Shown here one piece after another: positions 28,511 through 32,711 of a stretch of DNA of 49,211 nt. The stretch's first letter is position 1. Each line of letters starts with the position of its first letter. Source of the stretch: Parachlamydiales bacterium (lineage in GTDB: Bacteria > Chlamydiota > Chlamydiia > Chlamydiales > Parachlamydiaceae); contig JAGVJP010000060.1 of assembly GCA_020051075.1 (NCBI GenBank), positions 1-49,211 on the forward strand. Direction: 5' to 3'. The translations under genes were made by a program, and so were the position numbers. The notes below the pieces were generated by a model. It ran no database searches, was not told where the DNA came from, and saw only the letters and a program-made list of their open reading frames with translations.

Positions 28511-29809
28511 TCAAGCAGCCTTTGAAGACCATCTTTCATCAAATTTACGTTGTACAAAACTTAAAAGAGTCAGCAATTGACTGGATGAAATACCCGATTT
28601 TTTAAAATACTTCCTATTTAAAGTACGTTGAGGAATAGCAAGATGACCAATATTCTCCCATTCTAGATAACCTTCGTCGTTAATAGTTGCTGATGTTTTA
28701 CGTAAGTTATCAGGATGCAATGAATAAGGAACATCAAGCAGACCTTTTGAAAATGCTATAGGAAAAGCTTTAGAAAATTGCGGTGACAAATTTAAAACTG
28801 ACTCTATAATATTAATTGCTTGTTCAAAGATCCTTTCTTCTTCAGCAGCATCATATTGTATTGTCGTTGTTTCACTATTAATGTTTTTTTCTACATTCAT
28901 AGCAATTTCATTCGCATAAATCATCGCTTCTATATTCTCTTCAATCGTGGGTATTCGTTGCGACTCTACAGTCGTTTTTACAATAAGACGTGCTGCGCCG
29001 CCTAATTTTGCCAATATAACACTTTCCTTAATAGCGGCCTTTGCACCTTCTATCGTTTTTGGAAATAATCCCATAAATGTATAGACAACAATATGCCAAT
29101 CCCCATCACCTAAGTATTTTTTTGCTAAGCTATTGAGAACACGTAAACCTGCCATATCTTGAATCAAATTTGTCCCCTGACTATAACTCAAAGAAATGCT
29201 CGATAAATTCTGTTGCCTAAAAAAAAGTCCTTCAAGAATTGTCACAGCAATTAAGAACGATGGTGGGCAAAGCTGACCTAAAAGGCAACCACCAAAACTT
29301 TCAATATGTGCGTTCTTTGAATGTTCAACAAAGTATAGAACGCTTTTAATCCATTCTTGCGTTGATTCTTGAATTGAAACACTACTATAGGGAATACAAT
29401 AAGAAATTGGTCCTCCCTCAGATATGGTGATGCCTGTTTTAACCATCGTTTTAAAAAGATTAAAAGGCTTCGCTGAACCGTGACGTACTTGCACGAAAAA
29501 AGGATAATCTACTGAATCAGAGACTTCTTGTATCATAGATTGCGTTATATGAGCACCATGAGAGATTAGAGGATAACCATTCAAGTTAATGCGTTTTTCG
29601 AGTGCATCGCGGATCTGTTGAAATTCTGAATTTCGCGTATAGCTATCTATGGTAATAGTCCCAACCGTATTACTGCACAGACTCGCAACGGCTTTTAGTC
29701 CACTTGTCATCGTCTGAATATTTGAGAACCCCATGCGTGGCTGAATAAGAAGATGGTGATCCCGTTTTTTATATCTTATATATTGATCAAAGCTCTCACA
29801 ATTCATCAA
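28511..29809 (-). CDS. Glutamate/methylaspartate mutase large (E) subunit, NikV/GlmB-like
   Basis: IQPRMG, TITIDSYTR, LNGYP, QVRHGS, EGGPISYCIPYS, HIESFG, YTFMGLFP, IVKT..E..RIPT. Confidence 0.9.
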   Translation of the reverse strand: MMNCESFDQYIRYKKRDHHLLIQPRMGFSNIQTMTSGLKAVASLCSNTVGTITIDSYTRNSEFQQIRDALEKRINLNGYPLISHGAHITQSMIQEVSDSVDYPFFVQVRHGSAKPFNLFKTMVKTGITISEGGPISYCIPYSSVSIQESTQEWIKSVLYFVEHSKNAHIESFGGCLLGQLCPPSFLIAVTILEGLFFRQQNLSSISLSYSQGTNLIQDMAGLRVLNSLAKKYLGDGDWHIVVYTFMGLFPKTIEGAKAAIKESVILAKLGGAARLIVKTTVESQRIPTIEENIEAMIYANEIAMNVEKNINSETTTIQYDAAEEERIFEQAINIIESVLNLSPQFSKAFPIAFSKGLLDVPYSLHPDNLRKTSATINDEGYLEWENIGHLAIPQRTLNRKYFKKSGISSSQLLTLLSFVQRKFDERWSSKAA

Positions 29810-30237
29810 GCAACTGCTTTAATTTTTTGAGACTCGTATAATAGATAATTTTGAAAATCTACAATTTCCGTTTCTGAATAGATGGCATCAAATCCTGATT
29901 GTATAAGTTTTTTTCTTTCTTGATCTGTCAAAGTTCCATTCAAAGTAAGCTTACCTCCCAACACAACTTTCATCTTGTGAAGAAGTGTCATTTTTCGGAT
30001 TTCTTGAATCAGCTCAGTCCCCTTAATGTGTCCTAGACCATTTACTGAACTCAAAACTAATATAAAAGGGTGATGACGATGACAGGCTTGAATCACTTTA
30101 CTACTGGCAACACAGGCTCCCAGATTAACGACATCAAAGCCCAACTCTCTCATCAGTAATTCTAGGTAAACAAGATTCCAGGTGTGAGAATCCGAAGATG
30201 TTGATGAAAGAACAACTTTCTGAAAATTAGTATGCAT
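29806..30237 (-). CDS. Cobalamin-binding mutase small (S) subunit, NikU/GlmA-like
   Basis: SDSHTWN (variant of DxHxxG), VVNLG, LSSVNGLG, LGGKL; 4-nt ATGA overlap with the E subunit; GGAGG RBS. Confidence 0.88.
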   Translation of the reverse strand: MHTNFQKVVLSSTSSDSHTWNLVYLELLMRELGFDVVNLGACVASSKVIQACHRHHPFILVLSSVNGLGHIKGTELIQEIRKMTLLHKMKVVLGGKLTLNGTLTDQERKKLIQSGFDAIYSETEIVDFQNYLLYESQKIKAVA

Positions 30238-30475
30238 TTTATTAATCCTCCCTACTCAATCATTATCCCTACTCTCTCATTGTTTTTTCATTGAAGATTT
30301 TTTTTCTCCGCTTATAGTGGTTTCAAAATAACTCATAAATTGCTTGCTGGTCAATTATCTTATTTTCTGAAAAGATCATGCTCACATAGACTTTAAATTC
30401 TCATATTTCATATTTTTGCCCAATCGTCTATAGTGACCATAGTAAGTGTTAATATAACTCAATACAGATAAGAAA

Positions 30476-31390
30476 GTGCTTAAAAACAACTGCATTAAGG
30501 CGTCAAGATTGAATTGGGATAGATTAAGAATATTTTATTGGGTTGCAAAGTTTGGATCGTTTAGTAGAGCAGCTAAAGCCCTTAAAACAAGTCAACCAGC
30601 TCTTTCTCATCAAATAAGTCATTTAGAAGATGAGCTTGAAAATGATCTATTTGTGAGAGTTTCGCAAGGCATAAAACTCACGCAAAAAGGAGAAGAGTTA
30701 TTTTTCTCGATTCGTGATGTATTTTTAGAAATTGATACGGCAATTCAAAGAGTCAAAGAAGATGAATCTGAGACTGAAGGAACTTTGAGAATTTCAGCAT
30801 CACAAGGGTTTATTTCAAACTATCTTTCCCCCAAAATCCCCCTATTCATAGAAAAATATCCTAAACTACGTTTGTCGATTGCTGCCAGTGATTTTGACCT
30901 TGATCCTGCTAATGGTGATTTAGATGTCGTCATTCGTCCAAAACTAAAAGGTCGCGCTGATCTTATTCAACACCCTATTATGACAATGCACTTAAGACTG
31001 TATGCAAGCAGAGATTATATACAAAAATATGGATTGCCACAGAAAATAAGTGATCTCAATAAACATCGACTCATTGCACATGGAGAGTTCCAATCTCATC
31101 CCTATGCAGATCTTGATTGGCATTTAAAAGTTGGAATGCCTGAAGGCGAAAGTCGCAAACCGTTTTTGACACTCAATGGTCCTATTGGAAGAACTCAACT
31201 TGCTGAAGATGGGGTGGGAATTATTTTAATTCCCAATAAACATCCCGCCATTCGTAATTCAAAACTTGTGAATATTTTACCGAAAGAACGCGGACCAAAA
31301 ATTGATCTTTTTTGCATCTATCCAAAACGTCTTAAGAAATTAAAAAAAATTGTCGCGTTTTCACAATTTATACAAGAGGTTTATCAATAA
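30476..31390 (+). CDS. LysR family transcriptional regulator
   Basis: WDRLRIF, GSFSRAAKAL..SQPALSHQI..LE, LTQKGE; alternative TTG start at 30509. Confidence 0.93.
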   Translation: MLKNNCIKASRLNWDRLRIFYWVAKFGSFSRAAKALKTSQPALSHQISHLEDELENDLFVRVSQGIKLTQKGEELFFSIRDVFLEIDTAIQRVKEDESETEGTLRISASQGFISNYLSPKIPLFIEKYPKLRLSIAASDFDLDPANGDLDVVIRPKLKGRADLIQHPIMTMHLRLYASRDYIQKYGLPQKISDLNKHRLIAHGEFQSHPYADLDWHLKVGMPEGESRKPFLTLNGPIGRTQLAEDGVGIILIPNKHPAIRNSKLVNILPKERGPKIDLFCIYPKRLKKLKKIVAFSQFIQEVYQ

Positions 31391-31403
31391 AAGGGAGGAA
31401 ACC

Positions 31404-32672
31404 ATGAAAAATATAATTTTCATTAATTGTCGACAAATTGAATATTATGATTTTGAAGAACTAAAAAAGCTAGGAGACTTTAAATTTCAGCTCATCACAG
31501 ATTCCCTTTATTTTAAAAAACTCTCTGATAATCAAAAAAAATTCTTTCATAAAATTCATATTCTCAAGCAAAATCGTTACGAACATACGACTATTAAACC
31601 TTTTACCTTTGCGGAAATTGAATCCATCGTTCAAAAAGAACTCATAGAGGATCCCAATCTTGAAATAATTTGCAGTGAAGAAATCAATATTCTTGAAACG
31701 GATCTTCTCAAGAGAAAACTTAATATATATGACTCCACCGAAGTTTATATTGATGCTTTTCGTAACAAAATTCTTATGAAAAAAAAAGCACAGGCAGCAG
31801 GCATTAAAACGCCTAAATTCATGAACATTGAGCAAGAAAAACTAAAACTTATTCCAGATTATTTGTACGAAGAAATAGTCAATTTTTTAGGTACTCCTTT
31901 TGTGATAAAACCTACAGATCAACATTCTTCAATTGGCGTTTTTAAGATTACTAACTTTCGTGATTTTTCCAGAGCGTATTGGTCAATGCTTGGCAACAAT
32001 TATGAAGCGGAAGAACTTATTGAGGGGGATCTCTATCACAGTGATGTTTTGATTCAAGATGGCCTGATTCATTTCAATCAAGCCTCACGCTATATGTTCT
32101 CTGGTTTAGATTTTCTAAAGGGACATAATCATGGTAGCATTCCCATCCTTGCATCTAACCCTCTCTCTAAAAGAATGCGTAATTTTACTGAGAATGTACT
32201 AAAAGCCTTAGGCATGAAGAGTGGTTCAGCGCACCTTGAACTTTTTCACACTCCAAGCGATGAATTAATTTTTCTTGAAATTGGTGCTAGGCCGCCAGGC
32301 TCTTTGGTTGTCGAAAATTATCGTCGTAGCTTAGGAATCAACATTCTTAATGAAGACTTTAAAATAAAAATGGGCATTCCTTTAAATATTACTACTCATC
32401 AGAACATTAAAAGTTTTTGGGGGTTTTTCCCAAGAATACCAGGACGTGTTCTGGATCTTATTCCGCCTATCCTCCACAGCCCTTATGATATTCGTTGGTT
32501 TATACAAAAAGGTGATGTCCTCACTGCACCTGAAGCTATAAGTCATAAAGCCGCTGAGTTCTTTGTCTATAATCCAAACTACGATACTCTTTTAAGAGAC
32601 TTTGAAGAGTTGAGGTTTCATCGAGCACTCAGCGTTGAACCTGTAGACGATTTTCATAGTGAGGCCGCATAA
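31404..32672 (+). CDS. ATP-grasp ligase (L-amino-acid ligase / NikS-like)
   Basis: FRNKILMK, PFVIKP, EELIEG, HLELF, FLEIGARPPG; GGGAGG RBS before ATG 31404. Confidence 0.85.
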   Translation: MKNIIFINCRQIEYYDFEELKKLGDFKFQLITDSLYFKKLSDNQKKFFHKIHILKQNRYEHTTIKPFTFAEIESIVQKELIEDPNLEIICSEEINILETDLLKRKLNIYDSTEVYIDAFRNKILMKKKAQAAGIKTPKFMNIEQEKLKLIPDYLYEEIVNFLGTPFVIKPTDQHSSIGVFKITNFRDFSRAYWSMLGNNYEAEELIEGDLYHSDVLIQDGLIHFNQASRYMFSGLDFLKGHNHGSIPILASNPLSKRMRNFTENVLKALGMKSGSAHLELFHTPSDELIFLEIGARPPGSLVVENYRRSLGINILNEDFKIKMGIPLNITTHQNIKSFWGFFPRIPGRVLDLIPPILHSPYDIRWFIQKGDVLTAPEAISHKAAEFFVYNPNYDTLLRDFEELRFHRALSVEPVDDFHSEAA

Positions 32673-32688
32673 TTCACCAAAAACAACG

Positions 32689-32711
32689 AAAGCCACACAT
32701 GTGTGGCTTTT
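32689..32711 (+). terminator. Intrinsic terminator after the ATP-grasp gene
   Basis: Perfect palindrome aaagccacacatgtgtggcttt followed by T-rich sequence. Confidence 0.75.

Follow-up and report, generated by a model that had tools for sequence, protein, structure and literature searches.

The 49,211-nucleotide stretch analysed here (the window), a single contig from an assembly deposited as Parachlamydiales bacterium, carries a compact four-gene islet encoding the two subunits (S and E) of a cobalamin (vitamin B12)-dependent mutase, a LysR-family regulator and a stand-alone ATP-grasp ligase. We found the same four genes together in both genomes of the family to which this DNA belongs, and we give about even weight to the proposal that these genes constitute a small biosynthetic module, kept by vertical descent, that yields a 3-methylaspartate peptide, the product of S and E being joined by the ligase and the regulator controlling both. 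According to this proposal, S and E would form an adenosylcobalamin-dependent glutamate mutase that converts L-glutamate to (2S,3S)-3-methylaspartate, which would not be degraded, there being no lyase, and to which the ligase would couple another amino acid as an amide at the expense of ATP, giving a peptide of two or very few residues. The LysR regulator, predicted to be co-transcribed with the ligase and divergent from the mutase, would control both units. Cobalamin would enter through a TonB-dependent receptor under riboswitch control, and a PduO-type enzyme would adenosylate it, a supply shared with a B12-dependent ribonucleotide reductase.

The four open reading frames (ORFs) that an earlier note on this DNA had reported here are all present and intact, and their family matches in profile searches lie far above chance. 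A separate B12-binding S and a PF06368 E are encoded side by side, as in glutamate mutase (E, PF06368, 273.3 bits against a cut-off of 26.6; S, PF02310, 40.2 bits against 32.1). Homologues of E number 2153 at an expectation value of 0.001 or below, most of them 410–450 residues long, and the best non-self match is 48% identical. Aligned with the solved GlmE structure 6h9e (7e-32, 114 bits), the window E has identical residues at seven positions of that enzyme, R66, R100, R149, H150, E171, Y177 and Y181, which correspond to R24, R58, R108, H109, E130, Y136 and Y140 of its own 431 residues, and none of the seven varies among 24 aligned members of the clade. From the structures of 1999–2001 we take these residues to be glutamate-contacting or catalytic, with the three arginines holding the two carboxylates. 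The DSHTWN motif of S, to which the earlier note had drawn attention, belongs to a clade-wide form, D[SA]HxWN being present in 68 of 80 S homologues, and the first 40 residues of the other 12 alignments giving no match to the motif. The likeness to actinobacterial mutases proposed at the same time also stands, in that E falls in a short-E clade with many actinomycete members, below the cut-offs of the canonical equivalogs; the members of this clade have about 415–445 residues, the nearest relatives of the window E are 40–50% identical to it, and its identity is about 40–47% to the 80 loci fetched around its relatives and 38–44% to the actinomycete loci. Two proteins, P0055 (592 residues) and P0107 (600 residues), are fusions of E and a B12-binding domain.

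From its sequence and predicted fold, the ATP-grasp protein is assigned to the L-amino-acid-ligase type, in keeping with the activity suggested for it earlier. In Pfam it matches PF13535 (ATP-grasp_4; 44 bits, cut-off 27) and also the Ddl C-terminal domain, and among PDB sequences it matches RizA best (4wd3, 4.8e-12). An AlphaFold2 model built from a 10-sequence alignment (mean predicted local distance difference test score 88.9) was compared with the PDB using Foldseek, and ranks 1–6 were taken by RizA (4wd3), two chains of BL00235 (3vot) and BacD/YwfE (3vmm, 3wnz and 3wo1), with template modelling scores of 0.71–0.76; carboxylases and PurK ranked below these L-amino-acid ligases, and the RimK and Ddl profiles match the protein weakly. 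Eight residues are invariant in 10 ligase relatives (K122, K169, E203, H277, E279, E292, R296 and G299), and their positions suggest roles in binding nucleotide and magnesium. Orthology to a named ligase was not found among DdaF, BacD, PylC and Ddl, for which the scores lie far under the cut-offs (e.g. DdaF, 30.2 against 840; BacD, 17.5 against 850). Ligase-like domains also occur inside proteins of 847–2122 residues, some with two matched stretches (P0135–P0140 and P0146).

The genome to which the islet belongs is not the one under which it is filed. The assembly (G000; 2.94 megabases in 133 contigs, 5.7% contamination, with the window as contig C107) is a mixed bin, and the window is foreign to the bin's main organism. 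The window contig lies at the low-G+C extreme of the G000 contigs, and single-copy genes present on it (ClpB, RF1, HisRS, AccA, AccD, RNase HII, MutY, RecJ and UvrD) have second copies on other G000 contigs at 33–52% identity. UvrD in all 30 sampled genomes of the G000 family is 37–43% identical to that of the window, and none of the same 30 has a PrmA match at an expectation value of 1e-20 or below. We assign the window to the organism of another genome, G410, a single contig of 1,838,212 bases, because positions 22230–42229 of the window are 100% identical to 20,000 bases of it. G000 holds only part of that organism; the regions of G410 carrying the ribonucleotide reductase NrdJ and the adenosyltransferase are absent from it. 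Since the bin is mixed, statements about the window's own genome need G410 and not G000, and an early observation that none of 40 G000 relatives has E, taken as a sign of recent transfer, was dropped, these relatives belonging to another organism than the window. The family concerned comprises two genomes, G410 and G408 (Candidatus Nucleicultricaceae), on both of which the key searches were rerun. At the islet locus of G408 (L003), UvrD is 69%, HU 82% and PrmA 47% identical to the window proteins, and the FliF of G408 is 57% identical to that of the window. Genomes in this family measure 1.7–1.8 megabases, and the reduced genome supposed in the earlier note is borne out by the 1.84 megabases of G410. 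A described member of the type genus of Nucleicultricaceae is reported to inhabit the amoeba nucleus (PMC4817620); the window is not equated with that organism.

The genomic setting is biosynthetic in character. Neither a methylaspartate ammonia-lyase (MAAL_C) nor the reactivase GlmL (PF13941) was found in the window, where both had been reported missing, and each is absent from both whole genomes (0/2 in G410 and G408). A mesaconate-type fermentation route elsewhere in the genome, which the earlier note had named as grounds for giving up its idea, was looked for through methylaspartase, with the same outcome in the two genomes. Cofactor supply is in place: a PduO-type adenosyltransferase is encoded in both genomes, each has two cobalamin riboswitches, and G410 encodes a B12-dependent ribonucleotide reductase, NrdJ (1216 residues; NF005736, 2124 bits). 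The two G410 riboswitches (contig C1, 213636–213820 and 122978–123161; L193 and L194) stand one ahead of the class I reductase genes nrdAB and the other ahead of genes for a TonB-dependent receptor and TonB. CobS was found in neither genome (0/2), and S is the sole PF02310 match in each. Cobalamin is thus probably imported and adenosylated, with the mutase as its second user, and since a riboswitch precedes nrdAB in a genome that also encodes NrdJ, B12 seems to switch G410 between its class I and its B12-dependent reductase.

Conservation of the islet argues for a lasting association of the four genes. In L003 the order is ligase, LysR, divergent S and E, then hup, prmA and uvrD, with identities to the window proteins of 37.5% (ligase), 56% (LysR), 47% (S) and 46% (E), and a metagenome contig, L146, has the same layout; there LysR is 56% identical, the ligase 39% and S, truncated where the contig stops, 53%. 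Because the islet lies next to hup-prmA-uvrD, on the same side, in both family genomes, with proteins 37–56% identical, it predates the split of G410 and G408 and is old, not a fresh insertion; the description of the islet as inserted between hup and fliF was therefore misleading. The ligase-side neighbours do differ, being fliF in the window, and an ORF of 211–224 residues, a SagB-family dehydrogenase and a Dac carboxypeptidase in L003 and L146. That ORF, which lies with SagB in L003:928-2773 and L146:2941-4746, is 76% identical between the two and has no family match, and neither the window nor the checked region of G410 has a match to it. The SagB-family dehydrogenase was considered as an additional islet gene and rejected, as G410 keeps a SagB-like gene with the same Dac about 1 megabase from the islet. 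From these differing neighbours, and from the location of SagB-like and Dac elsewhere in G410, it follows that the four genes stayed together through a rearrangement of the ligase-side flank. A decaying or silent relic is a very improbable explanation of the islet; its G+C content is lower than that of the rest of the window (35.4% against 39.2%), as a relic's might be, but all four ORFs are full length and free of stops in both G410 and G408, although the proteins differ by 44–63%, the catalytic residues of the enzymes are intact, and genomes of 1.7–1.8 megabases usually lose unused genes.

Beyond this family, the association was followed in 80 loci chosen by similarity to E, for each of which 10 kilobases were fetched, so that only the presence of a ligase is informative there. 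S is present in 79 of them, and a ligase homologue lies within 10 kilobases of E in 29 at an expectation value of 1e-5 or below, or in 25 at a stricter filter. One E clade, with members in Pseudomonas, Streptomyces, Nocardia and Micromonospora, has the ligase in 19 of its 20 rows, the exception being L076, and the ligases of these 19 loci likewise form a single 19-row clade; 15 of the loci have the order S, ligase, a protein X of about 498 residues, E, and four have ligase, X, S, E. The window ligase falls in an eight-row group with P0122, P0123, P0124, L003, L146, P0125 and P0127 (94 by the Shimodaira–Hasegawa-like approximate likelihood ratio test, SH-aLRT), and in the E tree the rows nearest to the window are P0008, L003, P0020, P0015 and P0009, with P0075 pairing with L079. 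The longest contigs are equal in size within the pairs P0122/P0008 (65083), P0123/P0009 (164010) and P0125/P0075 (8805), which suggests that the members of each pair are encoded on one contig. The ligase and mutase trees, which are quick or FastTree reconstructions with long branches and place the window at 94 (SH-aLRT) and 83, largely agree, the window ligase clade being mirrored in the E tree. The earlier note had staked its proposal on the mutase and ligase recurring together and sharing related origins; the recurrence is found in L003, L146 and the E-selected loci, and the trees point to the related origins. Eight Streptomyces loci without the ligase (L007, L010, L012, L014, L017, L021, L034 and L077) have a LysR-like helix-turn-helix match immediately ahead of S-E in the same orientation.

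Several observations weigh against the proposed 3-methylaspartate peptide module and are set out here with the alternatives on which they bear, starting with the chemistry of the mutase. Both subunits score under the NCBIfam equivalog cut-offs (E, TIGR01503, 173.5 against 390.1; S, NF002612, 55.3 against 110, and TIGR01501, 45.7 against 135.8), and because of these scores the pair is best regarded as a divergent subfamily and is not filed as canonical glutamate mutase. The S motif has the D and H of DxHxxG and ends in N, and GlmL is missing. A different substrate or order of steps, with the ligase acting first and the mutase rearranging a bound glutamyl group, or with the mutase acting on a glutamate analogue, is in our estimate unlikely. 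Consistent with it are the distance of E from the canonical enzyme (the 114 bits to 6h9e and the TIGR01503 shortfall), the lack of about 40 N-terminal GlmE residues (the alignment begins at residue 58 of the 6h9e chain), the absence of GlmL from G410 and G408 and the varied gene order among clusters (S-ligase-X-E and S-E-ligase). The retention of the three carboxylate-holding arginines together with E171, Y177 and Y181 nevertheless fits a free amino-dicarboxylate, and for relatives in this clade of short E subunits, which serve macrolactam pathways, free glutamate is given as the substrate (PMC5785472).

The islet also lacks an exporter, a peptidase and a self-resistance gene; major facilitator superfamily (MFS) transporters do occur in the related clusters L079 and L009. 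The lack of an exporter gene would be in keeping with a ligase that adds the mutase product to something larger (an envelope component, a protein terminus or a polymer), and in two genomes of the bin's order (L097 and L098) a ligase homologue does lie among genes for a heptosyltransferase, an ATP-binding cassette (ABC) ATPase and a KdsA-like protein. We nonetheless hold a larger acceptor to be improbable, since the ligase is closest in fold and sequence to ligases of free amino acids (Foldseek ranks 1–6) and not to RimK, Ddl or Mur enzymes, and neither a glycosyltransferase nor an envelope gene occurs within the islet or next to it in the window, L003 or L146.

The remaining counter-evidence concerns the linkage itself, and to it belong the selection of the 80 loci by E and the limits of the trees. 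A word-indexed search returned 13 relatives of the ligase, as if the family were rare, and this was ruled out by an exhaustive search, which gave 3055 representatives at an expectation value of 1e-3 or below and 275 at 1e-30 or below. Among 40 metagenome loci selected by the ligase, many on short contigs, S or E lies nearby in one (L146), and none of six genomes of the bin's order with a ligase homologue of 28–37% identity has S or E within 10 kilobases of it (L097–L102, from G214, G384, G275, G405, G184 and G328). The ligases in those six loci neighbour a serine hydroxymethyltransferase-like enzyme, methyltransferases (one fused to the ligase in a protein of 655 residues), an ELFV dehydrogenase, an aminotransferase, an MFS transporter, an aldehyde dehydrogenase and an AMP-binding enzyme, or else envelope genes, which suggests several small peptide pathways in the small genomes of the bin's order. 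Because most members of the ligase family are unlinked to a mutase and have other enzymes as neighbours, the ligase substrate changes between clades and is not readable from homology; in our reading, the mutase is one of the various producers of unusual amino acids with which the family associates.

The same counts could be read to mean that the two operons are independent, the ligase using ordinary amino acids and the mutase supplying 3-methylaspartate for something else, and the separate, divergent transcription of the mutase and LysR-ligase units, the many ligase relatives without a mutase nearby and the 51 of 80 E relatives without such a ligase nearby would all allow it. We consider this quite improbable, given that the four genes are found together in three independent sequences despite one rearranged flank, that the ligase subtree mirrors that of the mutase, that in a second large clade both are in one operon at 19 of 19 loci, and that no other consumer of 3-methylaspartate was found in G410 or G408 (methylaspartase, 0/2).

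The proposed module combines two kinds of enzyme that are both already known, the glutamate mutases of secondary metabolism and the ATP-grasp dipeptide ligases. Like the islet, the clostridial enzyme GlmS/GlmE (MutS/MutE, EC 5.4.99.1; 1cb7, 1ccw, 1i9c and 6h9e) pairs a small B12-binding S with a PF06368 E, and the two share the Asp and His of the S motif and all aligned substrate-binding and catalytic residues of E. The islet enzyme differs in an E shorter by about 50 residues, in having DxHxxN in place of DxHxxG and in its scores under the equivalog cut-offs, and its genome differs from the clostridial pathway in lacking GlmL and methylaspartate ammonia-lyase, the setting being biosynthetic, not fermentative. 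Among the mutases of actinomycete secondary metabolism is GlmA/GlmB of friulimicin. SceL/SceM and VinH/VinI (homologues of 163 and 432 residues) are taken as a B12-dependent glutamate mutase that supplies the 3-methylaspartate starter for macrolactams (PMC5785472). The sizes of these subunits match those of the islet (about 150 and 430 residues), and both enzymes would supply 3-methylaspartate as a building block. In the actinomycete pathways this product is loaded on a carrier protein for a polyketide synthase or nonribosomal peptide synthetase, whereas the islet mutase has only a stand-alone ATP-grasp as its partner.

On the ligase side, RizA, BacD/YwfE and BL00235 resemble the islet protein as stand-alone ATP-grasp enzymes encoded beside genes that make an unusual amino acid, and RizA (rhizocticin) and BacD/YwfE (bacilysin) are ligases of "Trojan-horse" dipeptide antibiotics. 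Identity to the islet ligase is 15–20%, and a B12 mutase partner is lacking in those systems. In the nikS-nikT-nikU-nikV operon of nikkomycin, which the earlier note had named as a parallel, an ATP-grasp gene accompanies a GlmS/GlmE-like pair within a large cluster whose product is a peptidyl nucleoside.

More closely comparable are the Pseudomonas, Streptomyces, Nocardia and Micromonospora clusters, in which a mutase of the same clade and a homologous ATP-grasp (25–33% identical to that of the window) are encoded in one operon. They are much larger than the islet: two ligases occur there alongside enzymes resembling AsnA and PanB, a luciferase-like monooxygenase and an MFS transporter. In the trees, both their ligases and their E subunits form clades apart from those of the window, and no LysR gene occupies the corresponding position. 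The cluster is conserved in four Pseudomonas loci (L006, L009, L027 and L032) and 15 actinomycete loci; in L009 it spans about 1900–13300. It holds genes for a 507-residue protein, the AsnA-like enzyme (NF005054, 322 bits, over the cut-off), the monooxygenase and the MFS transporter, followed in our inventory by mutase S, an ATP-grasp, a 498-residue protein, mutase E, a second ATP-grasp and the PanB-like enzyme, and a GntR-aminotransferase gene lies opposite it. We know of no description of this S, ATP-grasp, 498-residue protein, E, second ATP-grasp and PanB-like arrangement from Pseudomonas or actinomycetes, and a published description of a self-contained mutase-ligase pair was not found in the open-licence literature, which is not proof of its absence.

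If the proposal is true, it defines a simple route to 3-methylaspartate peptides, and assigns a role to one of the few accessory pathways kept in a 1.84-megabase symbiont-type genome and to the second B12-dependent enzyme of that genome. It would also draw attention to culturable Pseudomonas and Streptomyces, whose larger, uncharacterised clusters follow the same logic and could yield a product quickly. A bolder extension, which we think rather unlikely, is that a mutase with a stand-alone L-amino-acid ligase represents an unrecognised, phylum-spanning class of small-peptide modules (Nucleicultricaceae, other proteobacterial metagenome-assembled genomes, Pseudomonas, Streptomyces, Nocardia and Micromonospora), whose minimal four-gene form might let an intracellular, possibly intranuclear symbiont use host cobalamin to make a 3-methylaspartyl dipeptide that acts on its amoeba host, or on competing microbes, as a signal or as an antimetabolite of aspartate or glutamate.

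Table 1. Features of the mutase-ligase islet and its flanks, in window coordinates.
Feature	Position	Strand	Remarks
hup	27967-28242	-	islet flank
Mutase E (catalytic) subunit, 431 aa	28511..29806	-	PF06368; ATG start at 29806
Mutase S (B12-binding) subunit, 143 aa, DSHTWN motif	29806..30237	-	PF02310
S-LysR divergent intergenic region, 238 nt	30238..30475	.	presumed promoters and LysR site
LysR-family regulator, 304 aa, GTG start	30476..31390	+	HTH_1 and LysR_substrate
ATP-grasp ligase, L-amino-acid-ligase type (predicted), 422 aa, ATG start (MKNIIF)	31404..32672	+	PF13535
Palindromic hairpin AAAGCCACACATGTGTGGCTTT, possible terminator, 9-bp stem, 4-nt loop	32689..32710	.	17 nt past ligase stop
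fliF	33029-34639	+	islet flank

The layout of the islet is given in Table 1. The translational coupling of S and E noted earlier is seen in the overlap TGATG between the S stop and the E start, and the ATG chosen for E agrees with a database protein of 431 residues (P0001). For the ligase, a TTG start at 31350, which would overlap LysR, had been proposed; it is replaced by the ATG at 31404, a 99% identical protein (P0121) having 422 residues, and LysR and the ligase are therefore separated by 13 nucleotides with no overlap. The terminator ascribed to this operon stands in part: the 9-bp hairpin does follow the ligase, but its plus-strand tail (TTATTG) is weak, the terminator scan scored this hairpin on the minus strand only, and a second terminator-like site on the plus strand lies at 32894–32927. 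Both hup and fliF were located as the flanks named earlier, with hup, prmA and uvrD on one side of the islet and fliF and fliG on the other.

The regulator, whose gene is divergent from the S-E operon, has both expected domains (PF00126, HTH_1, 72 bits; PF03466, LysR_substrate, 73.9 bits) and is nearest to the GcvA subfamily in NCBIfam, with a score under that subfamily's cut-off; it is equally close to its positional counterparts in L003 and L146. Alignment of the S-LysR intergenic region with the equivalent stretches of L146 and L003 brings out a partly conserved block. As a candidate LysR box this block was not upheld, a clear T-N11-A dyad not being found in the window, and promoter-like hexamers are no commoner on either strand of the gap than in shuffles of it.

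Elsewhere in the window, a gene for a LysE-type amino-acid exporter (41075–41725, minus strand) is situated in the flagellar cluster between a flhF-like gene and flgE, 8.4 kilobases from the islet. A patatin-like phospholipase gene is present at 13642–14787 (plus strand), and a GrpB-GNAT fusion gene at 46125–47087 (minus strand) has a 60.5% identical copy on bin contig C74. A second HU-like reading frame at 45723–45995 (plus strand) is 34% identical to the hup beside the islet.

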